From: Reclinomonas americana ATCC 50394
Lineage: Eukaryota
Direction of reading: 5' to 3'
Length of the DNA: 57,288 nt
NCBI GenBank assembly: GCA_048213135.1
Contig: PS015014.1
Coordinates: 1 to 57,288 of the forward strand
The notes beneath the pieces are model-generated. The model did not search any database. It saw only the letters and a list, made by a program, of their open reading frames with translations, and was not told the DNA's origin. Below, piece after piece: positions 3,701 to 53,800 of this stretch. Position 1 is the stretch's first letter. Every line of letters begins with the position of its first letter. Position numbers and translations under genes: made by a program.

Positions 3701-5008
3701 CTCCTGGACCGCCGGCCGGTCACGGACGACGAAGCGGCCGTCGTGGAACGAATGTCTCACTGATGTTGGTGGAGGACAAGGTCTGCGTCGCACTTGTGCA
3801 CCTTGCGCTTCTCGATCGCCACAGGACTTACCTTCCAGCTACAACAGGATTCACCAGTGGAGAGCCCACAAGAGAGTCCAGTCAACGCAGTGTCAGAACC
3901 CACGGCTCCCAAGTCCAAGTTGAGTCCGCACATTACTGAATTCCCGAATTCTCTCCAACTCACTCGCTTACTCTTGTACTCCCCCTCCAGGCCTGAAGAT
4001 GAGGACAAGGCGCCTCGCAAACCGCGTGTGGGACCCGATGGCGTGCCGGCGTATGCCGTCATGACACGCAGCACCAAGGTTCGCACTGCTACCCGTGCAT
4101 GTAACTGGCAGTGTGATTTATATGCTCACGAGCTTGCGTGCTTGTCAATCAGTTGCGCACGGGTGCCGAGCAGCCACCACCCAACACCAACACCAACATG
4201 TTCCGACTCGACACCACTGGAGCACCGGTGGCCCGACTGGCGAGCATTGACTCGCCGCTCACCGACGACGAATCGCAGCCTCTGTCGCGCAAGGCATCCG
4301 GTTCCAACGGACAGTCGTTGTGGCGCACTGGTTCGGATCGCGAGAGTGTGTCGGCCTTTGGTGTGGCGCAGGCCACAGTGGCGACGGCGGTGGCAGCCTC
4401 CACCTTTGCCAGTGCTGTCAATGCCAGACGGCTCCAGTCGGCCACTCCGTCGCAGAGCTCTTCCACGACTCCCACGACAACGGCGTCGACGACGACGACA
4501 ACGACCACAACTGTGCAGCGCAGTGTCTCGGAACCAACATCGCCGCGCTCGACACTTGTGTCGGCCATTGCAGAGATCCCCAAGTGAGTCTCATGTTATC
4601 CTTGCCTGCTATGACGACGATCATTTGACGCTCACCGTGCACGTGTGTGGTCTCGGCAGTGCGCTCATGTCTGCGATCAATGCCTCCACGCGAGCGGTGC
4701 TGTTTGGACGTGGACGCAGTGGGTCATCGTCCACTGGCTCAACTCCCGTGCCGACTGCCACGATAGCGTCGGCCGCCTCACCGACCGTGACCAGCACGAG
4801 CGACATTGTCGCCGCCGGTATGCGGGCACGTGGCTCCTCGTTCGGCAACGGCAGTGTTCTGCCTCTTGTGGGCGGTGAAAGTATCGGCACACTGCGACGG
4901 ACAAGCAACGAGCAACAGCAACTGGCCGTTGTGACGATGGAGGAAGCCCCACGGCCGGCAGGGCTGCCTGCCGCCCGTTCTCGACCGACGTCGGGAACCA
5001 GAAAATAA
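707..5008 (+). CDS. Multi-exon coiled-coil protein with Ser/Thr-rich C-terminus, unknown function
   Basis: Exons join across GT-AG introns (e.g. SQV|VGLKEQLY; KSK|PEDEDK); heptad-rich segments such as KLRQELMDKDRDMAKMTKRISELE; TAA at 5006-5008. Confidence 0.65.
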
Positions 5009-5165
5009 CTTGTGCTTTTTCTTTCTTTTTCTCTGTCTCGTTTTCCCTGTATGTGCTGTTAATGCTGCAGTGAGGTAGCGCTATAGTGGCAGGTGGTGCC
5101 CGTAAAGTTTTGCTTGGGTTTTCTTGAAAAAAAGTCCGCTGCGTCCTCATCTCTTCCTGTACTGC

Positions 5166-8156
5166 ATGGCAGCAGCCACGGTTGAGTTGTCTCACTCACA
5201 TCGCACGCCCGTTCCAGAGTGCCTCACCTGAACTCTGTGATGTGTGCAGGATGTGGAGCTGCGTGATCTGCGGCTCGCCGAGTCGAGTCGCAGTGCCGAC
5301 ACTGATGACACCGACGAAGTGGTGTCGCCGAGTGCAGCCGAGGACGAGCTGCTTCCACGTCGCACCGGGGACGAAGTGGAGAGAATAGAACACGCAAGTG
5401 GCGGTGGCGATCGCAATGCGTCGTCGTCCAAGGAGTTGTGTTCAGATGTGTGTGTGTGTGCATTGTGTGGCAGGTGTTGATCGTATGTGGTGATGCAGAC
5501 AAGCACAGCAGGCAGAGGCATCGCAGCGCTTCTCGTCCAAGTGGGCGCTCTTCTTCTCGGTGTTGGGAGTGCGTACACTGTCGATCTGTTTTGTCATGCA
5601 TCTGTCTGTGTGTCGCGCTGACTCAACTGGTGCGATGCAGAGTGCTGTGGGGTGAGAGGCCCGCATGCAGCTTGTTTCCGATCACTCTGTCGCTCTCTCA
5701 CTCGCTCACTGTGCTTTCTTGTTTCGTCCAGCACCGGGAACTTGTGGAGGTGCGATTGTCTGTTGTGCACTCTGTTGTTCGAGCCCTGCCTGACTCGATC
5801 TGCTTTGCAGATTTCCGCGCATCGTCGCCGCCAATGGAGGCAACGGCGCGCTCTTCTGGCTCATCATCTGGAACGTCTTTCTCTTCCTCTGGGCCATTCC
5901 GTTGGTGCGGGCACACGCTTGTGACGAGACCACACTTCACACTGAAGACTCATTCTCTTGTTCTGCGCCGCAGATTCTTGTCGAATATGGTGCAGGCAGA
6001 CAGTTGCGTGCCCATCGATGCAGTGATGTCGTGTGTGTTGAGCATGACCTGATTCTTCCACACGAACTCCACAGAGCACGGAAAGGAGCAGTTCGTTGCA
6101 GGGGAATGGTGGCGTTGTGCACCGTCACGCTCAATGCTCATGTCGCGTGTCACAGGTGGGCGTGTTTTCGCACTTTGTCGGCGATCGATATCGGTGGATG
6201 GGCTGGTACATTGTTCTCACCAATGTGGTGATTATGGTTCGCCGAGTTTTCTCTCTCCTCCCTCGTCGCTGGGCGATTTACCTTCATTTTTCTGGCGTAG
6301 GCCTACTACGGCACACTTACAGGTTGCTTGATGTTACCCCTGGACGTCATCTGCGGTCGCCACTCACTGTTGCACGTGCCGCAGGATGGTGCATCTACTA
6401 CTCGGCCGTGTACATTTTCGTGCCGTTGCCCGAGTCGATCGACGATGCCTCCGTACAGTTCAGCAACTTTCTCGACTCACCATGGCCCGTCGTCCTCAAT
6501 CTGGTCGTGCTGCTCCTGGGTCTGCTGTGCTGCTGGAAGGGAGTCAAAACCATTGAGCTGGTACTCGCGCATCGACGTCGTTTCATGCACAGGAGGGAAT
6601 CGATCTCACTGCGCTGCATCGTCGCAGGTCAATCTGGTGCTCGTACCTGTGCTGCTGCTCATCATGGTGGGCCTCACCCTCCGCACTATCTTCATGAGTG
6701 TCGACGGCATTGCGTATCTGTTCTCGCCCGATCCAAGTTGCGTCGTGCTTTGCCACGGCACGTGAATGTTGTTGTGGCGCGCGCACCGACGAGCTGTGTG
6801 GGCGTGCAGGTGTGCTGATCGATCCCAGAGCGTATTTAGAGGCGCTGGCACAAATGACGTTTGACACGTCGGCTGGAACAGTGAGTTGCAAGCGCAAGCG
6901 CATATGCCAACTCGTTTTCTCACCTCGCACATCCACGACCGTCGCGTAGGGTGTGCTCATGACCTACGCCACGTATTTCAACGAGCAGGACTCGGTCAGC
7001 GGGTGCGTTCTGCTGTTGCTGCCACAATGCCGGAAGAAATCACAGTCACTCATTCACTAACTAGGCTTTCGTGGTTGACACCAATCGGTAATAATGTGGT
7101 GTCGCTGCTGGCGGCACTGACCATGTTCTCTGCTGGCTTCGCCGTACTCGGTCAGAATGGGCTGGACCGCGCCGCGGTGATTGCCCAGATGAAGGAGAGT
7201 GGTGTGGCCGGCACCGGCCTCGTCTTTCACTTTGTGCCGCAGCTCTTCTCGCAGATGCCCTTTGGCCGCCCTATTGGTGCGCGCATGTGTGTGTGTGCGT
7301 CGCTACTAGATTGCGCACTGACCTGCATTTCTTGTGGTAGCCGTCGTGTTCTTTGTGGCACTGAGCTTCGCAGCCTTTAGTTCGTACATTGCCGGTATCA
7401 TTGTGCCGCTCAAGGTCGGCTTCGATATGGGTGTGTCGCGCGGTCGAGTGGTCTTGATTGTCGGTGCCATTCTGCTGGTCTTTTCGCTGCCGAGCTCGTT
7501 CAGTGTCTCGTTCCTGGCCAATCAGGTGCGCTTACTTGCAATGGGGCCAAGGAACGCAGCTGACGCTGACCATCCTCCTCTAGGACAACACATGGGGCGT
7601 TGGTGAGATCCTGTGTGGCATCTTTGTGGCCTGGTTGGCAGTCGGCGGACCGGGTGGCGTGCGCCAGTTCCGCGAGACTGTGATCAATGTGGCAGCGTCG
7701 GATCGCGTCGGTCGCTGGTTCGATTTCATCATTCGCTTTGTGGTGCCGATCGAGACCGTCATTCTGTTTCTCGCGTACACCATTCAGGTGCGCTGCGCAC
7801 CGCACCACGCTTCCTTGTGACAGTATGCTGTTATTTTTCACACTCGCCACCACAGATGGCACTGGAAGACAACTGGTGGGATCCGTGGGCTGTCGAGTCG
7901 CTGGCCACCTGCTTGATCCAGTGGATCATTGGTGAGTCTCACTTAACCTCCCGCGATCGCCCGTGTGTGTCACTCAAGAAGCGATGCATGACGGGCAGGA
8001 TTCGGTGTGTGCTTTGTAGCACAGTGGATGTACTCGCGCAAACATCCGACGAGAGCCGCCGCTCGGCACGATGCGGTGGGCAGTCTGTCGTATGAGCGCG
8101 GGACGGAGCTGCAAGACAGGAGACACGACGAAGAGGGCGATGCCAACATAACATGA
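5166..8156 (+). CDS. Sodium:neurotransmitter symporter (NSS/SLC6, LeuT fold) family transporter
   Basis: Spliced TM1-2 signature RFSSKWALFFSVLGSAVGTGNLWRFPRIVAANGG...WAIPLILVEYGAGR; EALAQMTFDTSAGTGVLMTYATY; GTGLVFHFVPQLFSQMP; FFVALSFAAFSS. Confidence 0.92.
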
Positions 8157-8246: not shown

Positions 8247-9432
8247 TCACCGCCTGCTGCCGTGCGAAATCTGATACCGCTGCAGCAGTGCCTCCGCCAT
8301 CTCACGGTGGTCAAACGCAAAGTCCACTGAGTCGAGTCCTTCCCGAGTCAGCGGAATCCAGCGGTAACCCATGGCCTACACACGCATGTGAGCATGTGGG
8401 AACTGGCCTTGAGAGGGAAAAATGGGACATCGGACGCAACATCGTCGCCGGGGCACAACGACGCAAAGCTCCTGACCTCCACGTGGTAGCAAATGGAGAC
8501 CTGCGCAGCGCACCGTGAGAAAAACAATACAAGCAGTACACGCTGGCGGACAGACGCACCACATGCTTCCTCTTGTCGCGTGACGGGTGCCCGAAAACAC
8601 CGACCACAGTCGGATTGCTGCCGACCAAATTCGTCTCCTCGTGCAACTCGCGCAGAACCGCATGCACCGGATCCTCGCCGTACTCCACATACCCGCCTGC
8701 GGCAAGGGCGACAAATTTATAAGTCCCAGAGAATCAAAAGAGTTAGCTCCTGACTAAAAAGCACAAACACACCGGGCAATGCGAGGACTCCGCGGAATGG
8801 ATCACGTCCACGAACTATCAACAGCAACTGCGGCTCGCACGACTCGTCGTCGCCGGTACGCACCACTCCCGCATCGACCTGCACACACAAACACCGGTGT
8901 CAGTCTGTGTGAGCCTTCTTTTCTCGCATTTCGCGGCGATGAGAAGTTTTCACGAAACTGTCAGTGCGGGGTTCCGGAACACGGGCTCATGTGGCGGCAG
9001 TGGCGGGTACTCGTGACGTGGTGGCAGCACGAGCACAGTCTGTGCTGGTGTCGCCACTGGTGCAGTAGCAGCAGCAGCAGTGGCGGTTGAGGTACCATCG
9101 TCAGCAGTGGCGGCGGGAACGGCCACTGGTGCAGTGGAGTCGCCTGGCGATGACGATGTGGTGCGCACTGATGATGACGATCGATCATCCTCATCGTCAT
9201 CGTCAGTGTCATCAGTGTCATCGACGACATCGTGCACGCGCAAGTCATCGTCGGCAAACGCAGCGCGCTTGCTGTGCTGCAGCATCATCGCCGAAAATGG
9301 CATCAGTGGTGGCGGCGGCGGGGGTGTCGCGGGGGCTGCAGTTGCGATTGTCGCGGGCTGGCTGCTGGGGCCAGTAGTGGAGAGGGCCAGTGACGGGGGG
9401 AGGACAACAACAAAGTCCGCGTCGCTCACCAT
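8247..9432 (-). CDS. Nudix hydrolase (ADP-ribose pyrophosphatase-like) with acidic/low-complexity N-terminal extension
   Basis: Spliced FRNPALTVDAGVV...GRDPFRGVLALPGGYVEYGEDPVHAVLRELHEETNL (Nudix box), RDKRKHVVSICY, GDDAMGYRWIPL...FAFDH; 5 exons. Confidence 0.92.
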
Positions 9433-9525: not shown

Positions 9526-10529
9526 ATGCGGCTTGAGAAGTGCTACTTTTGCGGGTCCACCGTGTACCCGGGTCACGGCATGACCTTTGTGCGCAACGAC
9601 TGCAAGGTGTGTGTGAGCGCGCGGCGAGAATGGCACAGACGCAGACAGACAGACACTGTTGATGGAGATCGTGTGCATGCGCGTGCGTGATACGCATGCA
9701 CCTGCACCGAGTTGAAGATGGCGGTGGTGGGAGGGCAGGATGGCAGGCAGCGAGTGTGTGGGCGTGCGTGTGTTGTGTGTACATGTGCACATTCACATCA
9801 CCCGCCAACTCACGCACACACACTTATTTGTGGAGGAGACTCGCTTGTGCTCGCTGCTGCTGTTGGTGGGAGGTCCCTTATACATATGCCTGGCGCACAG
9901 ATTTTCCACTTTTGCCGGTCCAAGTGCCACAAGAACTTCAAGATGAAGCGCAATCCACGCAAGCTGCGCTGGACCAAGGTGTTCCGCAAGGCCGCTGGCA
10001 AGGAGTTGGCTCTTGTTGCGTCCCGCTCTCACTCTCTCGTTCCTTGTGTTCTTCAAGGGCCGCCATCTTATGCGCGCGCGTGTGTGTGTATCAGGACACG
10101 ACTTTCGAGTTTGAGAAGCGGCGACACAGACCGGTCAAGTACAGCCGACAGCTGGTGAGCGACACGATCAAGGCGATGAAGCGTATCCAGGAGATCAGAA
10201 CACGACGCGAGCGCGCCTTTATGGAGAAGCGCTTCCGCGCGGCCGAGAAGCAGCAAAAGCGACAGACGCTGCAGGATATCGCCAAGCACGTCAACCTCAT
10301 CCCCTCGCGCACACTGCGCGAGCGTGCCCGCATGCGCGTGCGCGCGCTTCTGGCCAAGCGCACAGACGCGGAGATGGCCGAGGGCGGTGCGGGCGGTGCG
10401 TCGGGAAGCGGAGCCGAAGGCGACGCTGCGGCGTTCATGGACTTTGAGAGCGACGGCGACGACGATGATGATGAGGATGAGGAGGGTGAGGATGAGGACG
10501 ATGGTGTGGAAATGGTAGAGGTTGAATGA
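9526..10529 (+). CDS. RLP24: Ribosome biogenesis protein RLP24 (RSL24D1)
   Basis: [53 protein letters not shown]...[16 protein letters not shown]; introns 9607-9900 and 10015-10094; acidic tail. Confidence 0.96.
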
Positions 10530-11658: not shown

Positions 11659-11966
11659 TCTGTCTTGTGTTGTTGTTGGCTGTGTTGTTTGATTGTGTGT
11701 GTGTCTGTTTGGCTGTTCTGGGAGGCGCGTGTCTGGGCTTTGCCGCCGCTGCTACCGCTGCCTCCGCTTCTGTGCAAAATTTGTGTTGATAACTTTGTTG
11801 GTGTGTGTCGCTGCGGTGTGAGAGTTGTGCCCTTTTGTGTGCATTTCGTTTTTGGTGTGGGCCCCCCGCCGCAGTCGCCTTACTTGTATGTGTGCTTCTA
11901 TGTGTCATATGTTCTTTATTCTTGCCACCCCCCCTACCCCTCTCTCTTCCGTCTCTTTCTGTTCCC

Positions 11967-12076: not shown

Positions 12077-12189
12077 TGGTCATGTGAGGGGGGGGGGGGG
12101 GAAGTGAGGGGGATGAAGAAGGAGGAAGGCGAGAGNNNNNNNNNNNNNNNNNNNNTGTATGTGCGTTGTGATCTCGCTGTTTTCCGTAG

Positions 12190-12944: not shown

Positions 12945-13765
12945 TTAGTGGTGGTCGCCCTGCAGCTGCTTGAGCACAAAGACCTGTCCGCAGTCAGAGC
13001 ACTCGTACGGCTTGTCGGCAGACACCTTGAAGAACTTCAGAGGATCGTGCAAGCCATCTGCGAGTGTCGAGAACATAATGGGTCAGACACTCGATCTCTT
13101 TGGAGCGATAAGGAAGATGCAGCAAAAATCACCCTTGCAGTCTCCAGGGCAGCCGACAATTCGCTCGCTGAAGTAGCTGTGCACCACCACCGGCTTCTCC
13201 TTGGTGCCAAAAGGACCACTGTATGCACACCGACGGAAATCAACAACAAATATGCGGACACACACTCGCGGACGACGACACGCAACGTCAGCACGCCATC
13301 CCAGAACTCGCTTCCCTTCTCAATCTCCAGGCGGTCCTGGCCAGTAGCCTGCTCGATATCGGTCGGCTGGTGGTCAGGATCGGTGCTGGCCGGCGGGCGC
13401 GATGCTGAGGGAATCAACGGCGGCATCAGCGTGACCGTCCAAGATGCATGCAAAGGAAGATGAATAGTACACACGAANNNNNNNNNNNNNNNNNNNNNNN
13501 NNNNNNNNNNNNNNNNNNNNNNNNNNNNNNNNNNNNNNNNNNNNNNNNNNNNNNNNNNNNNNNNNNNNNNNNNNNNNNNNNNNNNNNNNNNNNNNNNNNN
13601 NNNNNNNNNNNNNNNNNNNNNNNNNNNNNNNNNNNNNNNNNNNNNNNNNNNNCACACACACACACCTGCGGCTGATGGGGCAGCAGAGCCAAAGGCACGG
13701 CTTCGCATCATGACCGCGAGGCCGGTAGTGTACTGGCGACGAGCAGCAGAGAGAACACGCTCCAT
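12945..13765 (-). CDS. COX5B: Cytochrome c oxidase subunit 5B (yeast Cox4 homologue)
   Basis: Transit peptide MERVLSAARRQY; PTDIEQATGQDRLE; GPFGTKEKPVVVHSYFSERIVGCPG; HD...KPYECSDCGQVFVL zinc site. Confidence 0.93.
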
Positions 13766-14274: not shown

Positions 14275-17200
14275 ATGAGCACGGTCGCCGCTGCCGAGGA
14301 GCATGTGGCAATGGAGGCAATGTGCCCGCGTTCAGTTGCGTCCTGCTTCAGAGGAACACAGAAACACACAAGCACACACACACGCACTGTATACGCGAGT
14401 GCGTTTCTCGAGGAAAAACCGAAAACTGGTGGCAGTCCGCTCTTTTCCACCACGCGCCTTGCTCCTCCTCGCCCATCCACGCACACACACACACTGTGCA
14501 CGACTCTTTCCTTGGCACCACGTTCGCTAGCTGTCGCCGCGCACTTGATAAGAGACAACTAACGAAGAAATCGTGAACCGCACAGCGCGCCCTTGCTGGC
14601 ATCGCTGAGGTGCCGGTGGACCGCTCAACAGTGGTCCCTGACTTGCACGACCGTATTCAGTTCCTGCGCAAGTGAGTCTGTCTCCCTCTCTTGATTGATA
14701 CCGGGAAACGGAACGCGGCGATTGGAAACTGATATTTTTGTCTGCGCAGGTTGGTGGCCGACTTGGCCGGCGAGTTTGAACGCGAGGAGCACACATGGAG
14801 GGCCGAGTCGCTGCGATACGAGCGGCAAATCGCCGTTGCGTCTTGGTGCCAGCTCAGCGTGGCATAAAACCGTGATTTGTTAATGTTTCTCGGCGATACG
14901 TACACAGGAAGCCGCAATCCAACAGCAGAAAGTACGAGAGTTTGAGACGGCACGGCGCATGGAGATGAGACTGGAAAATGAGCGAGATCGACGAGTTGCG
15001 CACACGCTGCGGGCAGTCTCTCGATTTTATTGTCTTCTCATCGCTGGTGCGCACAGGACCAAGCTCGCAAGATGGAGCAGATGCGAGAGGAGGTGGAGCG
15101 CATGAAAAGCAAGTGCGACATGGACCGGCAGGCCCTTCGACTGCTGCAGCGACAGGATCGGTCCGCCGCGCTGTTGGACAACTGTCGTACTGCAGCGCAC
15201 ACTGGTTTGCAATTGCGTGTTGCAGTCGTCGACTACTATGACATTGTGCGCTAACTTTTGCTCGAATGCAGCACTGCGCGACTGGGTGAATACGCAGCTG
15301 GATGAGATACTTGCAAATCACAAGGACCTGGTCGCCTCAGTGGCCGAAGCGGTGCGTCGCGGGATGACGACACCTCCTTTTTCCTCCGCCGCCCGTTTGC
15401 CTAAAGAAACTCGCAACTTGTTCATTGCAGGCGCGCTTCTCCCGCGATACGGACTCGAGTTCGTCGGAGAGTATGGATGATCGGCTGGAGGGATCTGGTG
15501 TTCGTTGCGTTGTCGTTGATCGCCAGTAGTGCTACGTGGAGCCTGTGCGTGCTCACTGCGCACAATCGTACAGAGTCGGTGCTGCAGAAAATGCTGGTGG
15601 TGCAACACTTGATCCGCTACATCACTCACCTGGAGAAGGAGGTGAGCGACCGAGCCGAAGAACTGCGTCAAGTTCGCCAACTGCTGTCGGCTGCTGCGGT
15701 CTGTGTGTGCCACACTTCCCGCATGCCTCTGCACTTGTGCACTGACGATGCCGCGCGCGCAGCCCCTTGGTGACTTCGAGGCGCCGCCGGAGAGACCCGA
15801 GCTGATGCAGGGAGAGGCTGCGGAGCTGTACCGCAGCGCTCTGCAACAGATCTACGACACGGTGCAGCAGAGTGAGAAGCGGCGGCAGTCGATGTGTGCG
15901 GCCATCATGCCGGTCACAAAAAGCAGCGGCGCCGTGCGCGCCACGGGTCGGTTGCGTAGCAAGTCCACAGTGATCATCGAGGAGAACAACACCGAGGTCG
16001 ACGACATCGAGGCCAGCTGCAATGACGACGTGGGAAAACCAAAAACAGTCAAGCTCGACCGCATACAGTCCGCAGGCGGTGCCGTCGCACACGGCAAATC
16101 CCGGAGCGTCGACATTTCCGTGCCGGCCTCATCGCCGACGGCGGCGACAACAGCGCCGGTGGAGAATCGGCGGCGGGCGAAGCATCAGCGTCGAAAGTCA
16201 CTCTGCTTTGTGCCCACCACGGCCGGCACCCGAGTCAGTTTTGACGAGGCCGACGCCACCGGACCAACAACACCGCCACCACCGACCAGGTCGGTCAGCG
16301 ACAACCAGTTGCATGACGACGCCGCTCCATCGCAGCTGGCAGACAACGATCCACCACCAGCAGCGACGCAACAGCCATCACAGCCACACGACGAGGGATT
16401 GGGCCCAGAGGACTCGTCGTCGACAATGCCACTCAGCGACGACTCCACCGACGCCTCGTCTGGCCGGACGGTGGAGGAGCGCAGCAGTGGCCGGGTCGGA
16501 TCGAGTGGCTCCCGCAGCGCCAAACTTTCACCGCCACGACTGCCCGGTGAAGCCGCTCCAGCCGTCGACGCTGCGCCGCCGTGGAAGCCACCGCCGGTCC
16601 AACTGCCAGCTCCGCCTCGCGACCGACCAGTCCTGCCACCGCTTGGTGTCTCCACGGACTTGTCGCCCTCCAGGAATCGACTCAAGGAGGCTGCCAAGTT
16701 ACTTGCACATCACACACCACTCTCTCTTTCTCTCCTCACTGTGCTGTCTGTGACGCTGACGCTCGCTGCGTAACAGGTTCAACGGCACCATCATTCCAGT
16801 GCAGTTCAGTCTGCGCTCGAAGACCGGCGAAGAGATTCCCGCAGACGACATACAACCAGAGACACAGGCGGCAGCGGCGGCACTGGCGGCCGATTCAGCC
16901 GCCGCCGCCGGTTTCGGCGGCCGCGCACCACTCTCCATCTTGCCACTGTCACTCACCGATGCCGTGGTGCCGCGACCGGAAAACATCATCTCCATTCCAC
17001 CACACCAGCTGTTGTACCTGCAGCAGCAACAGCAACAGCAACAACTGCAACAGCAGCAGCGCGCTGCGGCGGACTGGCGACTAAGCTATCGATCGCCCTC
17101 GCCGGTAATGCCGCTGTCATCCACCGCCAACAACAGCAGCAGTCTCCGCGTCAGTCACGATCGCTCGCTGTCGTTGTCGGTGCCGGCTGGCGATCGCCTC

Positions 17201-39998: not shown

Positions 39999-40066
<68 letters not shown>

Positions 40067-41879: not shown

Positions 41880-44800
41880 ATGGACGATCTCCTGAAGCAG
41901 CGCCTGGAGGCAGTGCTCCACATTGCCCACCAGAAGAACTGCTCCATTGAACAGCTGTCAGCCGTACAGAAGGATTGGATCGAGGCCGGATGTGTGCAGG
42001 TGAGCTCCAGAGAGAGAAGAAGAGATACAGAGGGAGGGAGGAATGCACACCACCAGCGCACTCGGCAGAAGAACACGCAGTCGAAAAAGAGTGTGAAGCT
42101 GTCGCTCGTGCACATTCACATCAACGAGGCCATGTACGACACCACGCTCATCCCGACTTGCGCGCCAGGTGGCCTCTCTGGAGGACGAAGCACGTGCATT
42201 GGACGCTATGGCTGAACTGCTGCTGCAGCCGTCGCTCACGCGTGTCGTGTTGGGTCAGTGTGCGCGGCCGTGGTTGCCGCTGTTGTGCGTGCGTCTGTGC
42301 TCGCGCCACCGACTGCCCTCCACTGCCGTGCTGTTGGCACTGACGGCCATTATCCGCGATGCATCACCATCTCGCACAGTGGAACGGTTTGCCGTCTGTG
42401 TAGGGAGCTTGTGAGAGACAAGAAGAGGGAGTCCTGATCGAATGGTGATTATGATGCAGAGTTGTGTTGGACTTTTTCGAGAGCACTCCGCACGTGTCGG
42501 ATCTCGTGGCACAGGCGCTTGCCGTGAATGATGTTGCGTGTGTGTCTGTTCTCTCTCTCCCTCTCTCTTCTCTACCTTCCATCTTGCTCATCGCGACACG
42601 GGCAGGAGACAAGTCTGATGGATCTGGTGACGGTGGCGCATCGGTGTGTGCAGTGGCACGCTTCGCACTTTGCCAGGCGATGGAACTGCGGTGTGTTCGT
42701 GCGACTGCTGGACCACCCGAATCCGCGTCTGCGTGTGCCTGCAGCTCGGATATGCCGTGCATTGGGCTTTCTCAGTGCCGAGCAGCTGGTGGTCGCCACC
42801 AATCGCGACTCGGATCAGATGGACACCGCGTTTGTGGCGAGTGAGGTGGACGAAATGTTGAGTAGCTCGTATTGGCAGTTGGTGGCATGCCCTCAGGTTT
42901 CTCACGCGGTCGCCCGACAGAGTGGAGCTGTCGGAATCGGTCGACAAGCTGGCCGTGTCGGAGACGGGTGCTGACGATGCAGCCTCGTCGCAGTCGCTGC
43001 GCCAGCAGCTGGCGGTGCACATCGAGGGATCCTCGCAGCTGGTGTCTGTCGAAGGCGTTCCACTGTATCGCAAGAAGAGTGCTTCGTCGTCGGCTTCACA
43101 TGCCAACAGGTGAGGTGTTTGTTGCTCTTCATGATGGCGCACGGGAATACGGGATTGTGTGACACGATGCGTGTTTTTTTTTGCACAGTTCGTCGTTTGT
43201 GTCGACCGAGACGTCGGCGAGCAATCTGCGCATGCTGGCGCTGGCGGTGAATCGATCGAATGCAGTGTTGCTTCGCGGACCCGGTGGCTCCGGCAAGACG
43301 CTGCTGGTGGAGCACTTGGCTCATGTCACTGGCAATCATGGTGACTCACCTCCGTTTGTGTGTGCTCCCGCCAGAGTGTGTGCTAACATGCACTTCAATC
43401 TCTCCTTTTGTTGCGCTCAACAGACCTCATCCGCGTGAATCTTGACGACTCATTCGACGCAAAGGACCTGCTCGGCACGTACGTGTGCACGGAGACACCG
43501 GGTGAATTCAAATGGCAGCACGGTGCACTCACCAAGGTCGGTGCCTTGCACTCTTGCATTCCTTGTCATCATTCTCTGCTCACCCTCATCGACACTGACA
43601 GGCGGCAGTGGAGGGCCGGTGGATTCTGATCGAGGACATTAATCTCGCCTCCTTCGATGTGCTCTCCATGTTGGTTCCCATTCTAGAATCGGGCGTGATG
43701 CGCATTCCCGGCAGTGATGAGGTGCACTACGCAATGAGCACGTGAGTGCGTATCGTGTTGATACTCACCAGTGTGTGTGTTTCGTTTGTTATCACAGCCT
43801 GTTCCAGTTCATCAAGGCTTCACGATGTTGGCCACGGAGACGGCCGATGCGGGGCGCTTCAAGGGTCTGCTGTGGTGTTTTTTTTTTACGCAGCGCTTCT
43901 TTGTTTTGTGTGCACTCATTGCGTAAACTGTGTCGCGCAGAAATCCCCACGGACAAGTACTGGTGGCCGGTGTATGTGCAACAGATACCACCTGCTGAAC
44001 TGCCCGATCTTGTCGCGCACCGTTATCCAGAAGTGCAGCTTGTAATTCCTCGTATGATTGGTGAGTGCATGCTGAGTGGAGAGAGAGAGAGAGACGTGAT
44101 GTTGTTCACACAGAGTGTTTATTATGTCTGTCTGCAGCCACGTACGAGTTGATGTGCCGCATGTCGGACAGCCGAGCGTGGAGCGTCGGCGGTCCGACGC
44201 CAGGTGACGATGGCAGTGCTGCGGCCGCAATGTCGCCGCTGCAGGGCACCGTCGCTCGCAGCATCTCGCGCACTTTTTCTTTGCGGTGTGTTCCGTTCAT
44301 GCTCCGCGCGCTGGCGGTTGCGGCTGCTCAGCTTAACATGCCGTGCCGTGCTGCAGAGATCTGATGAAGTGGGCCAGTCGTGTGGCTCGCTTGCAAATGT
44401 CGCATGGCGATGTGTCGTACGTGACAGAGGCGATGAAACAGGTGCGTGCGAGTCTGCCTCCGCCCCTCGCGCACCACAGTGCCTCTCGCTCACCAGCCGT
44501 GCAGGGTGTTTTGCTCGAGGTCATTGACTGCTTTGCCGGCATGATCAATCGATCAGAAGTGCGACACCATCTGGCGCAGGCCGCGGGTCGCTTGTGGGAT
44601 CTTGGCTCCGATCAAATCAGCTACCTGTTGTCGCAGCGCAAGCCGACGCTCTCTGTGCGTTTTTCGACAGTCTTCTGCATTGATCGTTCATTGGTTTGTC
44701 GACCGACCGCGTCGTGCACAGGTCGACAAGGGTCACGTACAAGTGGGTCGAGTGTTTCTGCCATCGCGCCGACCGGATGGACAGCTGTTGCCACCCTTTG

Positions 44801-47800
44801 CGCAGACCAAGCAGGCGTTGTTGTTGCTCGAGCGGCTGGCTGCGTGCACCTTTCTGCGTGAGCCGGCGCGTCTTCTCATCGCACCACGCCCTCTCACTTC
44901 ATAAACATCACTCGCTCACTCCGACGTACTGCAGGTCCTGCTGACGGGCGAGACCGGCACCGGCAAAACTTCCATTGTACAGTACCTCGCGAGGCTCGTT
45001 GGAGCCAAGCTAATAGCACATAATCTTAATCAGGTAACACGTGACTCGTTGTTTCCTCGCCTTCCTCGTCGACGGTCTTGTCCTCTGAAATCATTGCCTC
45101 TCGTTTCATCGTGCAGCAAACCGACAGNNNNNNNNNNNNNNNNNNNNTCGGACTTTGTTGGCGGCTTCAAGCCCATGGACTCTAAATACGCGTGCACAGA
45201 GTTGGTCGCATCGTTTGACCGGCTCTTTGGCAAGACTTTCTCGCGGAAAGCCAATGCTCGCTTCCTCGATCAAGTTAAGGCGGCACTGGCCAACAAGCTA
45301 TACACGAAGGTTTTTTGCCAGCGGAGACGCGCGTGTGTGTGTTGTTCATAAACTCACCGCGATACGTCTCACTGTGCAGGCTGTGCAACTGATCCGCTCC
45401 TCCATTCGGAGTGCCTACTCCAAGTTGCACACTGGGACCGCCGACGGAGCGTCGTCGGAGGGTGTGGGCTCTGGCCCCAGTGAGGCAGCTGCCACGGCCT
45501 CGAGCGAGCGCACCAAGAAGCGGCAGAAAGGGGTGGTGGGTCAAATGTGCCTGGACGATGTGCTGTGCTCTTGCCTAAATCCACGCCGGTTTTGTGTCGC
45601 AGAATGGACACTCGGTGGAACCCAAGTCGGCCAAGTTGTGGTCCAAGTGGGAGGCACTGGAGCGCGAGTGCGACAAGTTTGACGTGCAAGCAGAGGGCTT
45701 GCGTACGTCGTTTGCCTTCCACTTTGTCGAAGGCTCTCTGATCAGTGCCGTCCGTGAGGGCCACTGGCTGCTGCTGGACGAGATCAACTTGGCCTCTATG
45801 GAGACGCTGGAGCGATTGAGTAGTCTCTTGGACGGTGAAGAGGTGTGTGCTATGGAGCGCTGGAGAGTGTGTTTTGTGGACGCGCCCAGGATTTTTTGCT
45901 TATGTGCACACAGGGTACCATCTGCATCACCGAGAAAGGCGAGACGGAGCCGGTGCGGAGGCATCCAAACTTTCGCATTTTTGCGTGCATGAACCCGTCG
46001 ACCGATGTGGGCAAGAAGGATTTGCCGCCGGCACTCAAGAATCGCTTCACCGAGTTTTTCGTCGAGGTGAAGTGGCACTTGGTTTTTTTTGTTGAGGGGC
46101 GTATGGACGACAGCAACTGAATGGATTGGACACACAGGAATTGCTGGATCGCGAGGATCTCGAGGTGGTTGTCGACTCGTACCTGCGAGACACGGGCATC
46201 CAGCGGTCGGCAACAGCCGTGGTCGACTTTTATCTGGACGCGAGACGCTTGGCCGAGGTGCGTCGCCCGTGCATTCTTCACTGTCTCCTGCACCCACCGC
46301 TAATGGCGCATTGCGTGTTGACAGACGAGTTTGGCCGACGGCGCCAATGCCAAGCCACACTACAGNNNNNNNNNNNNNNNNNNNNCTTGCGCACCCTCAC
46401 TCGCGCACTGCAGTATGCTGCTCTCTGCGTCAGCACATACGGTGTGGAGCGGGCGTTGTACGAGGGTATCTGCATGAGCTTCCTCACGCAGTTGGACGCG
46501 GCGAGCGCCACCATTCTGCTGGAGGTGATCCGACGACGCATCCTCTCTTCGTCTACGTCGGCGGCCCTGAGTCGACTGAGTCAGGCTCCGAGGTACGCGG
46601 CTTGGCATCCATCCATGTGCAGCTGATTCAGTTTTTCTGCGATACTCACTGTTGCTGTGCAGACCTCCGCAACCCGAAGGCTACGAGCTGTTCGAGTACT
46701 TTTGGTTGGAGCGCGGTCCGAGTGCAGTGGCCACCGAGGCCGATTTGGCGCGCTTCATCTTGACACCGTCGGTGCGCGACCGCTTGAAGAACATTGCGCG
46801 TGTCATCATGGCCAAGCGGTTCCCCATTTTGCTGCAAGTTTCGTTCTTGTCGTGGGGGGCGTTGTGTCGTACTTGTGCTGAAGTCTATGTTGCATTCGCC
46901 AACCAGGGCCCCACAAGCAGTGGCAAGACCAGCATGATCGAGTACCTGGCCCGACGAACGGGCCACCACTTTGTTCGCATCAACAATCACGAAAACACCG
47001 ACATTCAGGAGTACTTTGGCCAGTATGTGTCGGATCCGACCACTGGCCACCTCGTGTTCCAGGACGGTGTGCTCGTCGAGGCAGTCAAGAAAGGGTGAGG
47101 CCGCCGCCGTCATCTTTTCGTACTCGACGCTCGTGTATTGACGAGCGATGCAGACACTGGCTTGTTCTGGACGAGCTCAATCTGGCGCCATCGGAGATCC
47201 TCGAAGCGCTCAATCGGCTGCTGGATGACAATCGGGAACTGTTCATTCCCGACACGCAGGAGATTGTCCGTCCGCATCCCCAGTTCATGCTGTTTGCCAC
47301 CCAAAACCCACCAGGCTTGTACGGTGGTCGAAAGGTGTGTGGCCTGTAGAGCTCCGTTCGTTTGTGCATGTGTGGTGCTGATATTTTTGAGGCACGCACC
47401 ACAGACTCTGTCACGAGCCTTCCGCAATCGCTTCCTGGAGATCCACGTGGATGACATCCCAACAGATGAGCTGGAGACCATTTTGCATCAGCGCTGCCTC
47501 ATTCCCATGTCGTACGCCAAGAAGCTGGTGGAGGTGCGTCGTGACTCGAGTAGGAGGGAGATCAGGAGCACCGTGAGGTAACATGCGGTTGTAACGTGCG
47601 CAGGTGATGAAGGAGTTGCAGAAACGTCGCCAGGGCAGTCAGGTGTTTGCCGGACGGCATGGTTACATCACTCCGCGTGACCTGTTCCGCTGGGCCGAAC
47701 GTCGCTCTGCGTCCTACGATGCATTGGCACGCGAGGGCTACTGCATTCTGGCGGAACGGCTGCGTAAGGACGACGAGAAGGAGACTGTGAAAGTGTGTGA

Positions 47801-50800
47801 CTGATTGCGCTGTTTGTGTGTGTGTGACCGATGATGTAGTCTGAGCTCACCGACTCTTGTTGCCTCGTGCAGATGGTCATTGAGCAAGTGCTGCGCGTCA
47901 AGCTTGATGTCGACAAGATGTATTCGTGCGAAGACAACACCATGTTTGATGTGCTGGAGGAGAAGCTTCGATTGCATCCCAGTGGCGGTGCGTGCATCTG
48001 TCGCCAGCACACTTGTGCTTGGAGATCGGTGAGACTGAAGAAGACATGTGTGCACTGCAGGTCTTCGCGGAATCGTGTGGACCAAGTCGATGAAGCGTCT
48101 CTTTTCGCTGGTCGGCACTTGCTTGAAACACAAGGTGTGTTCTCCGTGGTCTCTGCTTGCTTCACGCTGCAGCCGTGTATTGACATGACCGCTGCAGGAA
48201 CCCGTACTGCTGGTTGGCGAAACCGGGTGCGGCAAGACCACTGTGTGCCAGCTGTACTCGATCCTGTTGGACCAGCCGCTGCACATTGTCAACTGTCACA
48301 TGCACACGGAGACTGCCGATTTCCTCGGCGGGCTACGACCGGTGCGGCGGAGGGCGGCGATTGGAGCGGAACTCACCAGTGCCATTCGCTACTGTGTCGA
48401 TCGGTGTGTTTTGTGTTTGCGAGTAACCACTGAGTTTCGCTCTTGCTTGCTTGCTCACGGTTACTGACTCCTCAGTAATGCCGCCGTATTTGCCGACTGC
48501 GGAGTGAACTTGCCTCTTATCCACGACTCGCCTTCTGTGGACGCCACGCTGGAGGAGTTTGAGCGTTGCATGGCCAGCATCACGGAGGACATGGTGAGTG
48601 GTGTGATGTGGTTGGACATGTTAGCACTCCTCACTGACGTACATGCAGCTGGTGTCGATTCCTGCATTGCGAACGCAGCTGGAGCACGTTCGGCGAGAGG
48701 CTGCACGCTACAAGGCTCTCTTCGCGTGGTACGATGGTCCCCTGGTGCAGGCCATGGTTCGCGGTGACATGTTGTTGGTCGACGAGATTTCCCTGGCCGA
48801 GGATGCTGTGCTGGAGCGCTTGAACAGTGTTCTCGATCCGAACCGCACGGTGCTCCTGTCGGAGAAGGGTGGCGCGGCGTTGTCAGAGGTACAGGCGCAC
48901 TCGGACTTCCGCATACTGGCCACCATGAACCCCGGCGGCGACTTTGGCAAGAAGGAGCTGTCGCCGGCGTTGCGCAGTCGCTTCACCGAAATCTACGTGC
49001 CGGCGTTTTCATTCCAGGAGGACTTTGCCGTCATCATTGCTGCTCGCCTATGCGACGCCGAGTTGGCACTCCTCGCACCGTGCATGGTGGCGTTTTTCGA
49101 GTGGTGCTGGAGTGACGCTGCGCGTAATCACATTGTGTTGAGCATGCGTGACGCGGCTTCGTGGGTGGACTTTGCCAATCATGCGTTTGTGCGACTCGGT
49201 GCGACAAGACGAGAGTGCTTCCTACACGGCGCATTCGTTACGGTCTTGGACGGCATTGGTACGAGCAGCACCATGTCACGAACAACGATTCTGGCCACCC
49301 GCCGGCGCGCAGTGGCGCACCTGCTCGCCGTCTCGCAGTCGATCCCGCTCGGTGAGTCATTGCTTCCACCACCACCACCTCCTCCTCTTCCTCCTAGAAG
49401 CAACATCTCATGCATCAGCATACCACAGACGCCGACGGACGTGATGCGTATTTGACGCAAGTCGACACGGAAGACGCCTTCTTGTCGCAGGTGTTGAGCA
49501 GCGACGGTACTCTGCGATCGGCTGTCACCGAGCGCACCACCTTTGGAGTGCAGCCATTCACACTGCCTCTCGGCCCGCACTCGGTGCCAGCTTCGTTGCA
49601 CTACACGTTGGCGGCACCCACCACCTCGGTGAATGTATTCCGCATTCTGCGCGCCCTGCAACTGCGCAAACCAGTGCTGCTGGAGGGAAGCCCAGGCGTG
49701 GGCAAGACAAGTCTTGTGCAAGCAATCGCCAATGCCTCCGGGCATCGCGTGGTTCGCATCAACTTGAGCGAGCAGACCGACGTGATGGATTTGCTGGGCT
49801 CTGATCTGCCAGCGGAGAGTTGAGTCCATTGCCGCAGTAGCAGCAGAGTCCGAATTCCTTGCCGACTGACATTGTTTGCCCAGGTGGACGTGGTGGCGAT
49901 TTTGCGTGGTGCGATGGTGTGTTCCTGCGAGCGCTGAAGAACGGCGACTGGATTCTGCTGGACGAATTGAACTTGGCGCCGCAGCCGGTGTTGGAAGGCC
50001 TCAATGCTGTGCTCGACCATCGTGGAGAGGTGTTCATTCCGGAACTCAACCAGCGCTTCACTTGCCCGCCGTCGCTGCGCATTTTTGCGTGTCAGAACCC
50101 ACTGCAGGTGCGCGTGTTTGCGTGTTGTGGATGGTAGTCATTCTCTGACTGATTTTCTGTCCATCGCAGGAGGGAGGCGGTCGCAAGGGCCTCCCCAAGT
50201 CATTCCTCAACCGTTTCACCACCATTGCTGTCGAGGGACTCGACGAGGGCGATTTGCAGTTCATTGCGACAGTCATGTTCCCAGCCATTCCGCGACCGGT
50301 CCTCGACTCGATGATTCGCTTCAACTGGCTCATGCATCAGGTGCGCACGCAAGTCTGGTGTCGTTCATTGTCGTTCCATGAGTCCAGTTGTTCACGCTGC
50401 TGGTCTNNNNNNNNNNNNNNNNNNNNTGACTGGGTCGTGTTGGAGAACGCCAACCTCTGCAATCCCACTGTGCTCGATCGCCTCAATTCGCTCTTTGAGC
50501 CGAATGGCGTGCTGGTGGTGAACGAGCGTGGAGGAGGCGGTGTGTCGGGCGACGAGAGGTCTGTTTTTTTGTTTCACCAATCGCTTGCGTTGATCGATGA
50601 CTTATTGGTTGTTGTTACCACGCAGTGTCTCCAACAATGTGCTCATCCGTCCACATCCCGATTTCCGCCTGTTCATGACCATTGAGCCGAGATACGGAGA
50701 GGTATCTCGTGCCATGCGCAACCGCGGTATTGAGATTGCACTGCTGGAGCCGAGCACCAACTCGGTGGACATGCTGGCGCTGCTGCAGCAGAATGGCGTC

Positions 50801-53800
50801 GCCCACATTCAACTCGCGCCACGCTTGATCCGGTAAGAATTCTGTTTGGGTGGAAAATTTGTGTTTTCTTACTGCTATTTGTCTCATTCCATGTGCATTC
50901 GTGTCAGGCTACACGAAGTGCTGGTGCGACGAGTGATGCCAAACTACATGCGCTCCACGGCCGGTCCTCGTTTGCTGGTGCGCCTGGTCCAGTTGATTAC
51001 CGAGGCTGTCGGCAACGGGTTCAGTCTGCGCGAAGCGACCAACCTTGCAGCGTCATCAATCTACGCCCCCGAGCCTGGTCTCTCGGCAGCGGTGTCGCAG
51101 GCCGTCGACGAAGTTCTCTTTGTGGAGGCTGGTGACGCACACATGCAAGAAAGACTGCAACCAGTGTGGTTGAGTCGTCTGTACGACATGATGGCCGAGT
51201 CTGCTGTGTCACGCACACTGCGGTCGGTGGCGCCTCTCACCAGCGTGCCGGAAGCCGACTGGCAGCTGATTAGCACTGCCGCTATGCGCGTTGCCGTCGA
51301 GTGTGCCACGACTGGCGAAACCAATCTCCGTGCCGCGTTGTTGGACAGCGCGACGCTGGCCACGTCGAGTTCGCTCACCCGCGTGCTTGTTGCGTGTCGC
51401 TTTTTTTTCACTGCTTCCATCTGTGTCGGAGTCTCACGTTGCCTCTTGTGTTTTCGTCTTGGTTCGCAGTTGGACGGCGGTGCTGCATTGTTGCACACGG
51501 TGGCGCAGCATCCACTGCGACAGTGGGTCGACGAGACGCTCGACGAGATCCTGTCCGCGGTCGGTGCTGAGGGCCAGTTGCGTGCACTCGCTTCCACCGC
51601 CCACTACACTCTCTGCACAATGGCTAACTCAAGAGTGCACGCACACGCACACACATATACGTACATGCAGGTGGTCTGGCCAGTTGTCGCTGCGTGGCGT
51701 CGAGTGGTTGTCGTTGCAAGAGCACATTGCGCGCCGAGCTGCATGTGCGCCACACGTGCGACAACTCTGGCAGCGCTACACCAACAGTCGGAGTGCCTGT
51801 CTGCTACTCGTCTCGCGACTTGTGNNNNNNNNNNNNNNNNNNNNGCACAACTGGGAGGGCACACGCGCACAGCATGACATCTTGCAGATCGTGCATTTGC
51901 GCACCGGCACCCAGGCGACCATTCGACTCCGCACCGCTGCTCAGCGCACCACCGGCGTGCATCCACAAGCTGTCACGGGTGGTGCACAGAACCTGCAGCG
52001 TGCTGCTGACGCCGCCGTCGAAGCCGTCAATCACCGCTGGTGTCGACAGGCACAAACCGAGAAGTTCATCAATCTGCTGCAAGACAACTCCCAGCGCCGG
52101 AGCCGGTGTGTGTGCGAGCTGCTCGGCACAGCGTACGTCGCGGCTGCAGAGACGAGCCAGCGCGGCCAGCACCACATTGTCGTAGGCCAGCGCCGTGCGG
52201 CTGACGTCACGGAAGCGCAGTTCTTCCAGACGCGACTGNNNNNNNNNNNNNNNNNNNNTCCTGCGATGCCGTGGCGTGCTGTCTGCCACACTCTCCCCGG
52301 ACCAGTGGTGAGTTTTTGCGCGCGTGTGTGTGCGTGTACCTATCTTCCATGCCACACCTCACACTTGGACGCAACTGCAGGACTGCTTTCCACGCGGCAT
52401 TCGACGCGTCGCTGGGTGCGGTGGCTCGTCTGCAGGAGTCTCTGTTTGGGCGTGCCGGACTCGACATGTCGCGAACTCGATTCCGCAAGCAACTGGGACA
52501 GCCGTCGCCGGCATCCTCAGCCGAGCTGCGCCGATGTGTCGCCGAGGTGTCGGCGTCCGAGGTGCAGTGGTGAGTTGTTCCCCCTTACCCCACGACAGCA
52601 TTTCTTTTTTTTTGTAGTTTGCGTCGTGCCTCAACGCGCACCTGATGCAGGAGCCAATCGGCACAAAGTGTTGACTTGGTGTTGCTGGAAGCGCAACTGG
52701 GCGACTCTGCTTTCCGCTCGCTGATGCTGCAGTCACTGGCCACGGCGCAAGTGCTGGCGCTCGACAAGTTCCGCGACGATTCGGCGGGCGAGGCGGTGCT
52801 GCGTGCTCTCCGCGACACTGTGCAGCGTGCTGCCGGGCGTTCGGCGGTGCAGTCTGTCGAGACACTGACGCCTTCTCGCCGTGCCGAAAGAATCAATGAC
52901 GCGTGTTCGGCACTGCGGTCGCGGCTCTGTGCCCGTGCTCTGAACATGCAGCAGCAAGCCGTGCTGCTTGCGCAGTTGCACTCGGCGGTGCTTCTCGATG
53001 CACTCGAGGACCGAAGCGCATCGTTGCCCGGCTCGGACGCGATGCTGCGCTCACGCATGGCCACTGTGTCGGCTGTGGTTGACGAGGCGTGCGAGTTGTC
53101 GACCCGCAACCCCGCCGAACTCGCATCGTTGCAAGTACTGCGGTGGCACGGCGAGCAACTGGCCGCAGTCAGCAGTGTGCGTGGCAAGTCGCTGAGTCAC
53201 GCCGACTGGCTCACACTGCTGCTGCACGTGCGCCGTGCCTGGTTCGAGAACTACTGGGACCAGTCGCCGTCGTCAGAAACTGCTGCGCAGGTTGGTGTTC
53301 TTATTTGTTGTCGACTACTACTACTTTGTGAACATGCACACTGACGACGGAGATGATGTGCAGTTGTTGGTTGGCAATCGATTCGTGGACAAGCGGTACA
53401 ACGATGTGGGGCCTGGTTTCTCTCTACGGCTGGCTTTTGGTAGTCTTGCCACGTGGTTCACCACGCCGCTTCGCAACGTGGCGGCGGTGACTCGTGAATT
53501 TGGCGGCATGGCAACGAGCATCATGCGCTTCCGGTCGGCTGCCGCAAACCATGCCGCCTTTGCCGACATGCTCACCGCCACGACTCTGCTGGCCGAGGCA
53601 CATTTGAGTATGCTCGGTGCCTGGAGCCCCAAGCAGCGCGCCAGTGTTGGTGAGTGTTCTCCTCTCTTCTCGCTTCACGCGCGGTCAGCTCCAGATTCGT
53701 TTACACGCACCCGCACCCGCATGTGCAGGAATGGCGCACAGCACACTTGTGCGTGAGACCGGGACGGTGTACGGCACCCTGCTGCAATCATTGCAGGGAA

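Follow-up and report, generated by a model that had tools for sequence, protein, structure and literature searches.

Human U1 small nuclear RNA (snRNA) can pair with 5' splice sites in registers other than the canonical one, and two of these, the 'shifted' and the 'bulge +3 (or +2)' registers, have been distinguished and experimentally described, according to the available text of PMC4856993. Such sites are few: among 201,541 human 5' splice sites, 68 were predicted to use the bulge +2/+3 register and 54 of these remained after curation, and all noncanonical registers together amount to 2.1% (PMC4856993). We analysed a single stretch of 57,288 bases (the window) from Reclinomonas americana ATCC 50394, contig PS015014.1, whose predicted genes use two kinds of 5' splice site (donor): ordinary donors such as GTGCGT, with G at intron position +5, and donors such as GTTGCGT, in which an extra T after GT moves this G to +6. 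A preliminary description of the same DNA had rightly called the latter kind a rare exception in mammals. In the window these one-base-shifted donors form a major class, 13–17% of the predicted introns, with a strict consensus of its own. Noncanonical registers are known; the novelty lies in the extent of use, as a major class, together with a strict consensus and no preference for G at the last exon position (−1G).

The shifted donors resemble the human shifted register, in which the U1 arm would likewise place the GU one base downstream of the one that is cut, +5G is missing, the intron-side consensus has moved by one base and no exon −1G is needed (PMC4856993). A human test oligonucleotide in Table 2 of that paper, ACA/GUCAAGUAUA, has the same layout as the donors described here (a slash outside brackets marks a splice boundary). 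The human register, however, concerns a handful of sites, not a share of this size; its sequence is GU(U/C)AAGU, whereas here it is GUU(G/U)CGU with +3 nearly always U; and it has been described by experiment (PMC4856993), whereas here the register is deduced from sequence. The human bulge 1 (+2/+3) sites also share with the shifted donors a composition of GU, an added U and the ordinary +3 to +6 bases (PMC4856993), but here the class comprises 25–28 of about 190 introns, and its loss of −1G speaks against a bulged helix with canonical exon pairs.

The ordinary donors of the window, AG/GTGCGT(G/C/T) or GTGCGC, accompanied by CTGAC or CTCAC near the 3' end of the intron, are like those of the Mamiellophyceae Ostreococcus and Micromonas, which have AG/GTGCGT(G) and a CTGAC branch motif (PMC2483917, PMC3879977); no second, shifted class is mentioned for these algae in the available parts of the two papers, and intron density here is far higher. 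A standard U1 arm has been reported, in the accessible text of a preprint, for five Mamiellales with GYGCGY donors and for Thecamonas, which prefers C at +4, whereas the arm is ACAAAC for GUUUGU donors in Entamoeba and ACGUAC for GUACGU donors in Mastigamoeba (bioRxiv 10.1101/2022.06.08.495308). The Entamoeba pair (GUUUGUU with U1 AACAAAC) has U+3 and a strong signal out to +7 in common with the shifted donors (bioRxiv 10.1101/2022.06.08.495308). That signal is nevertheless read in one near-universal register with G+5, unlike the two registers found here within the same genes. A split of donors that depends on LUC7 is said to separate exon-side from intron-side matches. It too defines two classes of 5' splice site (PMC11842720, as far as its available text goes), but within one register, whereas in the window the intron-side motif itself is displaced by one base. 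Literature searches returned no description of such a major shifted-donor class in any organism, which is not proof of absence.

The evidence base comprised the window sequence (57.8% G+C, 13 runs of N), protein homology and the literature. Introns were predicted with our own Viterbi program, which combines 3-periodic third-order Markov coding scores and an intron composition model with a 20-base acceptor matrix and a log-normal prior on intron length; all predicted introns are GT-AG by construction. In the neutral parse any GT could serve as donor at an equal score, and no other donor information was used. In the learned parse a donor table was taken from the program's own output and the program re-run. 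An initial neutral parse without the length prior was discarded, as adjoining introns were fused into 'introns' of 250–520 nt. With the prior, the neutral parse converged on 195 introns (median 71 nt), which became 190 when the introns of four weak gene models (11599–12087 +, 14088–14476 −, 21584–21901 − and 51845–52238 −) were left out; the learned parse gave 193. Minus-strand sites are named by the donor G in plus-strand numbering.

The preliminary description had listed 31 donors with an extra T after GT. The donor words were present at all 31 sites (23 on the plus and 8 on the minus strand), including the deviating GTTGCGC at 29422, and 23 of the sites were chosen as donors by the neutral parse (16 of the 23 and 7 of the 8, respectively) and 25 by the learned parse. 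Three further donors of this kind were found by the neutral parse and a fourth by the learned parse only (marked as new in Table 1). Shifted donors began 25 of the 190 introns of the neutral parse and 28 of the 193 of the learned one. They occur in 10 predicted gene models, essential genes such as RLP24 and MDN1 among them, and the proposal that two registers are routinely used is supported; if the six listed sites outside both parses are real, the class totals 34 sites and its share is about 17%.

GTTGCGT was the commonest donor heptamer of the neutral parse: it made up 18 of 190 donors, whereas its share of all 7,764 GT sites predicts 1.03 (p = 5e-17), and GTTTCGT was seen 5 times against 0.29 expected. 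Over both strands GTTGCGT occurs 42 times, more often than any other heptamer beginning GTT, and 18 of these copies were used as donors. By comparison, no donor was found among 21 copies of GTGTCGT, 17 of GTCGTGT and 17 of GTGGCGT, and one among 13 of GTCGCGT (GTAGCGT occurs only twice in the window), while the single-base variants GTTGCG[ACG], GTTGC[ACT]T and GTTG[AGT]GT were used in 2 of 36, 1 of 28 and 2 of 28 copies. The peak at +6G and +7T that had been expected of GTT donors was present: +6G occurred in 29 of 53 GTT donors compared with 30 of 137 others, +7T in 37 of 53 compared with 40 of 137, and both jointly in 26 of 53, against a frequency of 9.4% for the dinucleotide GT inside introns (p = 1.5e-13). 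As controls, an intron model trained solely on intron interiors yielded 187 introns with 17 GTTGCGT and 25 shifted donors, and the trained models, applied to the reversed window, yielded 11 introns and no shifted donor.

The position of GCGT within introns revealed exactly two donor registers, one base apart. Sixteen introns had GCGT starting at +3 and 19 had it starting at +4; registers two or three bases off were rejected, as GCGT began at +5 and at +6 in 3 introns each, which is background, and at each position further in the count was 0–4. The 97 donors with G at +3 had C, A or T at +4, +5G in 67%, +6T in 52% and −1G in 64%. The 53 donors with T at +3 proved to be a mixture, 15 having G+5 and thus the ordinary register (e.g. 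GTTCGT, GTTTGT) and 26 having G+6/T+7. Among all donors with G+6/T+7 but without G+5/T+6, the base following GT was T in 26, A in 1, C in 1 and G in 8, several of the last carrying G+5 anyway; G excluded, the extra base was T in 26 of 28 cases.

Shifted donors had been described as carrying the ordinary words with an additional T. This is correct for the form of the words, but the shifted class is the stricter of the two: positions +4 to +7 read GCGT in 18, TCGT in 5, GAGT in 2 and TGGT in 1, with GTGT wholly lacking, whereas +3 to +6 of ordinary donors read GTGT in 18, GCGT in 16, GAGT in 5, TTGT in 4 and TCGT in 4. Part of the ordinary-class excess of GTGT may stem from intronic (GT)n tracts, and a GTT-GTGT word contains a second in-frame GT three bases downstream, e.g. 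5435/5438. At +5 the 26 shifted donors had C in 23, A in 2 and G in 1, a poor match to the canonical register.

The exon side of the junction differed as well, in a manner absent from the preliminary description: the −1G preference is lost in the shifted class. G preceded 4 of 25 shifted donors compared with 45 of 57 G+5/T+6 donors (Fisher p = 2e-7) and 79 of 101 +5G donors (Fisher p = 1e-8), and over 34 candidate sites position −1 was A in 11, T in 10, C in 8 and G in 5. The log-likelihood of positions −3 to −1 of the shifted class was calculated under four models. It was worst with the ordinary matrix in place (−118.8), followed by background (−107.0), the ordinary matrix moved by one base (−102.0) and a free −1 with ordinary −2 and −3 (−100.2).

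Alignments with homologous proteins fix three shifted junctions exactly, at 10015 in RLP24 and at 46838 and 49819 in MDN1, and support a fourth at 19627 in a thioesterase gene. The 38-residue exon upstream of 10015 aligns with residues 28–64 of human RLP24 (6lss_7), its last residue being number 65, and the downstream exon begins at residue 66; no other stop-free, frame-compatible GT/GC-AG pair was found nearby. For MDN1, 120 midasin homologues were retrieved with the exon at 48679–49440 (the best 56% identical), and for each gap between adjacent tblastn segments all frame-compatible GT/GC-AG pairs were put to a vote. With 46838–46906 excised, 119 of 120 homologues aligned better and ...LLQ/GPTSSGKT was restored; the mean gain was 31.9, compared with 15.2 for the runner-up among 67 candidates. 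The intron is hidden when open reading frames (ORFs) are read, and it came to light only through homology, as 23 extra residues within the Walker A region. The pair 49819 to 49883 won the votes of 91 of the 120 homologues by an average margin of 22.2, and it has no +5G alternative. At least 50 of 120 homologues agreed on one pair at 45835, 47095, 47335, 49819 and 50108, of which only 49819 is shifted-class; GC donors, admitted to the voting, produced only noise. Gene finders with a single donor matrix would misplace or miss about one in seven junctions in this DNA, and stop-free introns such as 46838–46906 would be read through. Besides that intron, the candidates at 3919 (+) and 24604 (−) are likewise stop-free multiples of three that ORFs read through.

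The exons around 19627 align with residues 198–230 and 242–270 of ACOT7 (4zv3_A), leaving by extrapolation a gap of zero when the split codon is counted. In the same gene an apparent micro-exon of 7 nt, GTGCACG at 19456–19462 (+), lies between introns of 84 and 58 nt and provides VH(G) of ...NV-VHGG-TVFK. The NV/VHGG sequence is, we assume, the hot-dog fold motif. The downstream exon of COX5B begins exactly at GPFGT, residue 79 of plant COX5b (7jro_e), and its upstream exon gave no significant COX5B alignment against solved structures. A homologue search with the Nudix-box exon gave no matches. Exon-by-exon Pfam coordinates were too coarse to locate junctions (RLP24 ends at profile position 63 of 66), and nothing useful came from the Nudix and thioesterase exons. 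The statement that several shifted junctions are forced by conserved protein therefore stands for RLP24, for both MDN1 sites and, more loosely, for thioesterase 19627; for COX5B it stands on the acceptor side only.

The shifted-class introns have the features of U2-type GT-AG introns, their excision restoring the frame and collinearity with homologues at 10015, 46838 and 49819. Median intron length was 72 nt in the shifted and 70 nt in the ordinary class, phase distributions were alike, and CTGAC/CTCAC/CTAAC-like words were seen by eye about 10–35 nt before a (C/T)AG acceptor in both; the likeness of 3' signals, lengths and phases points to a single spliceosome. U12-type introns have an RTATCCTT donor and a TCCTTRAC branch site. 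This type was rejected, the donors being GTT(G/T)CGT and the 3' regions carrying CTGAC/CTCAC words (by eye). The GT at +6/+7 was rejected as the true donor because its context is never donor-like and because its use would break the frame at the junctions fixed by homology. Also rejected was cleavage one base downstream, giving UU...GG introns, because G follows the acceptor in only 14 of 25 cases, so that the mRNA would often be changed.

We consider it likely, with a probability of roughly 0.6, that shifted-class donors belong to ordinary U2-type GT-AG introns that are read by the same machinery in a register displaced by one base. The recognition motif U-(G/U)-C-G-U would then lie one nucleotide further from the cleavage site, as in G/U-UGCGU compared with G/UGCGU (here the slash follows G+1). 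Intron G+1 would occupy the slot usually held by exon −1G, U+2 would be the sole mismatch, and U+3, G/U+4, C+5, G+6 and U+7 would stand in for +2 to +6. The choice of the GU for cleavage, the only one available, would fall to the later U5/U6 stage, as has been described for the human shifted register. The identity of the extra base is as expected if U+3 must act as +2. The required T, the lost −1G and the restriction to exactly two registers argue together that the recognition helix as a whole has moved by one base, and the ordinary consensus is regained by reading one base downstream, GCGT peaking at +3 and +4 only and the shifted exon matrix outperforming the unshifted one. From this pattern we infer pairing of the snRNAs in the shifted register, with both classes served by the same U1 and U6. 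The debate on how the spliceosome, with U1 marking only the neighbourhood, chooses the exact bond to cut still relies on a few dozen human exceptions and on engineered substrates. An organism with 13–17% of its introns in a displaced register would provide hundreds to thousands of natural test cases, with a sharp consensus, without exon −1G and within housekeeping genes, RLP24 and MDN1 among them.

Several observations weigh against recognition out of register by the same machinery. When donors were folded by nearest-neighbour rules against the standard U1 5' end printed in PMC4856993 and the best register was taken, GUUGCGU and GUUUCGU without −1G formed duplexes of only −0.6 to −1.4 kcal/mol and GUUGAGU one of −4.0 kcal/mol, compared with −8.9 kcal/mol for AG/GUGCGUG. 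Duplexes this weak mean that standard U1 explains the shifted class poorly; either recognition depends largely on proteins and U6, or this organism has a different U1 arm. C precedes the GT of the motif in 23 of 26 shifted but 21 of 57 ordinary donors, and GTGT-type words are missing from the shifted class. The exon likelihood fails to separate the moved matrix from a free −1 with ordinary −2 and −3, and at +8 to +10 a shift makes little difference to the fit with the ordinary matrix (−100.6 shifted, −99.3 unshifted). Introns beyond the three or four fixed by homology are predictions from 57 kb. A frame-compatible +5G alternative exists for all but 9 of the 28 shifted sites and some stop-free alternative for all but 2, and continuity of the ORF is weak evidence for a donor because stop-free alternatives abound in this GC-rich DNA.

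The same words could also arise if U1 (and U6) paired normally with G+1/U+2, one U of +2/+3 were bulged and pairing resumed at +4. With one T removed, GTTGCGT, GTTTCGT and GTTGAGT read as the ordinary words GTGCGT, GTTCGT and GTGAGT, a bulged register of this kind is documented in humans (PMC4856993, in its available text), and −2A is kept at its unshifted position, in 13 of 26 shifted compared with 22 of 57 ordinary donors. A bulged helix, however, should keep or strengthen the −1G preference, which instead drops from 79% to 16%, and for this reason we rank the bulge second and regard it as unlikely. The unshifted exon matrix gave the worst fit, and other bulged bases are scarce (GTA 1 and GTC 1 compared with GTT 26). 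The duplex with standard U1 is stable only with −1G (−5.9 compared with −0.6 to −1.4 kcal/mol), which most sites lack; canonical pairs on both sides of a +2/+3 bulge, the exon side included, were not found.

Direct matching of G-U-U-G/U-C-G-U by a co-evolved U1, an additional U1-like snRNA or an altered stretch of U6 would suit the very strict consensus (C+5 in 23 of 26, with G+6/T+7 by definition), the near disuse of single-base variants and the weak pairing of shifted donors with the standard U1 arm, and Entamoeba and Mastigamoeba provide precedents for co-evolved U1 arms (bioRxiv 10.1101/2022.06.08.495308, available text). We nevertheless hold such an RNA to be distinctly improbable: the nearest published matches to the ordinary donors, in Thecamonas and five Mamiellales, go with a standard arm (bioRxiv 10.1101/2022.06.08.495308), and 3' signals look alike by eye in both classes. 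No Rfam family, snRNA genes included, reached its gathering threshold in the window, and E ≤ 1 gave only four weak, unrelated matches. The wider proposal, that this lineage has turned a rare accident of mammalian 5' splice sites into a second donor code with dedicated machinery, be it a further snRNA of the U1 type, an arm of U1/U6 co-evolved with (G)UUKCGU or altered checking by U1C or Prp8, also strikes us as doubtful. If it were true, about one intron in seven, essential genes included, would be readable only out of register, and site recognition would be naturally uncoupled, genome-wide, from the choice of the bond that is cut.

It is very improbable that GTTGCGT is merely a frequent word or element near real donors, at which gene models misplace the junctions. 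Introns are known here from sequence prediction, at least one stop-free alternative exists at 26 of 28 sites, and 10 of the 42 GTTGCGT copies lie within predicted sense-strand exons, with 5 more inside introns away from the donor; these copies (e.g. 3219, 29662 and 33341 +) may be unused cryptic sites or introns overlooked by the gene models. An artefact does not account, however, for three junctions that are base-exact from homologues or solved-structure sequences, for the use of GTTGCGT as donor in 18 of 42 copies where permuted words were used 0–1 times, for the sharp +3/+4 bimodality of GCGT, or for the agreement of the neutral and interior-only models and the absence of shifted donors from the reversed control. 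Hardly credible is a recently spread intron family that happens to begin with GTTGCGT: although many copies share an identical 7-base start and Micromonas has introner families with fixed donor words (PMC3879977, available text), a blastn-short comparison of 193 intron interiors gave no match between any two of the 28 shifted-class introns, whose lack of shared internal sequence shows that they are not a repeated family, the matches touching them were few and of 17–18 bases, and their lengths and 3' ends are as in other introns.

Table 1. Shifted-class introns and donor words in the window, with the parse or homology on which each is based.
Feature	Position	Strand	Donor word	Length (nt)	Basis and remarks
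RLP24 intron	10015..10094	+	GTTGCGT	80	homology and neutral parse
MDN1 intron	46838..46906	+	GTTTCGT	69	homology; in frame, stop-free
MDN1 intron	49819..49883	+	GTTGAGT	65	homology
Thioesterase intron	19627..19696	+	GTTTCGT	70	homology support and neutral parse
Thioesterase intron	19372..19455	+	GTTGCGT	84	neutral parse; restores ...NV/VHGG
COX5B intron	13219..13286	−	GTTGCGT	68	neutral parse
Nudix-gene intron	8879..8958	−	GTTTCGT	80	neutral parse; no +5G alternative
Nudix-gene intron	8376..8440	−	GTTGCGT	65	neutral parse; one +5G alternative
Intron	6003..6074	+	GTTGCGT	72	neutral parse; no +5G alternative
Intron in SNF-like transporter part	6737..6809	+	GTTGCGT	73	neutral parse; no +5G alternative
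Intron	29422..29496	+	GTTGCGC	75	neutral parse; +7 not T, outside strict shifted count
Integrator-1-like intron	30165..30246	+	GTTTCGT	82	neutral parse
Integrator-1-like intron	32009..32088	+	GTTGCGT	80	neutral parse; new; several GTG alternatives nearby
Integrator-1-like intron	34128..34200	+	GTTGCGT	73	neutral parse
Integrator-1-like intron	35361..35426	+	GTTGCGT	66	learned parse only
Integrator-1-like intron	36074..36134	+	GTTGCGT	61	neutral parse
Integrator-1-like intron	37399..37463	+	GTTGCGT	65	neutral parse
Integrator-1-like intron	37807..37890	+	GTTGCGT	84	neutral parse
Integrator-1-like intron	38247..38317	+	GTTGCGT	71	neutral parse; no stop-free alternative
MDN1 N-terminal intron	42533..42605	+	GTTGCGT	73	neutral parse; region poorly conserved
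MDN1 N-terminal intron	42857..42920	+	GTTGAGT	64	neutral parse; new
MDN1 intron	51389..51469	+	GTTGCGT	81	learned parse only
MDN1 intron	51577..51670	+	GTTGCGT	94	neutral parse
LRR/IQ gene intron	24260..24320	−	GTTGCGT	61	neutral parse; no +5G alternative
LRR/IQ gene intron	24745..24823	−	GTTGCGT	79	neutral parse
LRR/IQ gene intron	27723..27790	−	GTTTCGT	68	neutral parse; new
LRR/IQ gene intron	28611..28691	−	GTTGCGT	81	neutral parse
LRR/IQ gene intron	28872..28934	−	GTTGCGT	63	neutral parse
Intron	40576..40645	−	GTTGCGT	70	learned parse only; new
Donor word	3919..3925	+	GTTGAGT		candidate 72-nt intron in frame, stop-free; read through by both parses
Donor word	5181..5187	+	GTTGAGT		used by neither parse
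Donor word	5435..5441	+	GTTGTGT		learned parse takes in-frame GT at 5438, three bases downstream
Donor word	14335..14341	+	GTTGCGT		used by neither parse; region without confident gene model
Donor word	14835..14841	+	GTTGCGT		used by neither parse; read-through reaches stop
Donor word	24598..24604	−	GTTGCGT		candidate 60-nt intron in frame, stop-free; used by neither parse

Among the predicted introns, the donor at 28934 (−) is less certain, because canonical GTGCGT and GTGAGT alternatives lie 18–22 nt upstream. At 35361 the neutral parse chose an in-frame GT six bases upstream instead. Tandem in-frame GTs 3 or 6 bases apart occur at 5435/5438 (+), 35355/35361 (+) and 8559/8562 (−); at these sites the neutral and learned parses, or the preliminary description and a parse, differ in their choice, and the tandem GTs could be alternative 5' sites. 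Which of 5435 and 5438 is the donor is ambiguous from the sequence. Sense-strand introns are rich in (GT)n tracts, GTGTGT occurring 231 times in the window and 120 times within predicted sense-strand introns, and the choice among tandem GT donors is blurred by these tracts. Of the listed sites outside both parses, 14835 is probably a real donor: excision of a 73-nt GT-AG intron would link ...RYERQIA to EAAIQQQKVREFE..., continuing into the predicted gene that starts at 14959 and connecting two open coiled-coil frames. The candidate intron at 24604 (−) has CTCAC and CAG close to its 3' end.

Intron density in the window is very high, with about 190 introns in about 38 kb of predicted coding sequence, or about one per 200 coding bases, and 43 predicted introns in the Integrator-1-like gene alone. 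Lengths are narrowly spread, the majority falling between 58 and 95 nt around the median of 71 nt. The host lineage appears to be poorly sampled, without a close relative in protein collections, where the top midasin identity was 56%; an LRR/IQ exon query found no matches in these collections, and an Integrator-1-like exon query found one weak match (E = 2e-5) among 1.84 billion representative proteins.

The plus-strand model 14959–17503 overlaps the minus-strand model 16185–18834 over 16185–17503, where one of the two must be wrong; the minus-strand exon 17707–18498 encodes TBCC_N and TBCC domains and gives Pfam support to the 5' part of the latter model. The predicted gene 707–8156 (+) is probably two genes fused, one for a long coiled-coil, low-complexity protein and one for a membrane protein with a weak match to SNF sodium symporters (PF00209, E = 0.0026, short of the Pfam cutoff). 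On the minus strand, 38512–39414 is an 8-exon nuclear gene, one exon of which matches the CcmE domain (PF03100, E = 1.8e-5). We take this match to suggest bacterial-type (System I) cytochrome c maturation in this eukaryote.

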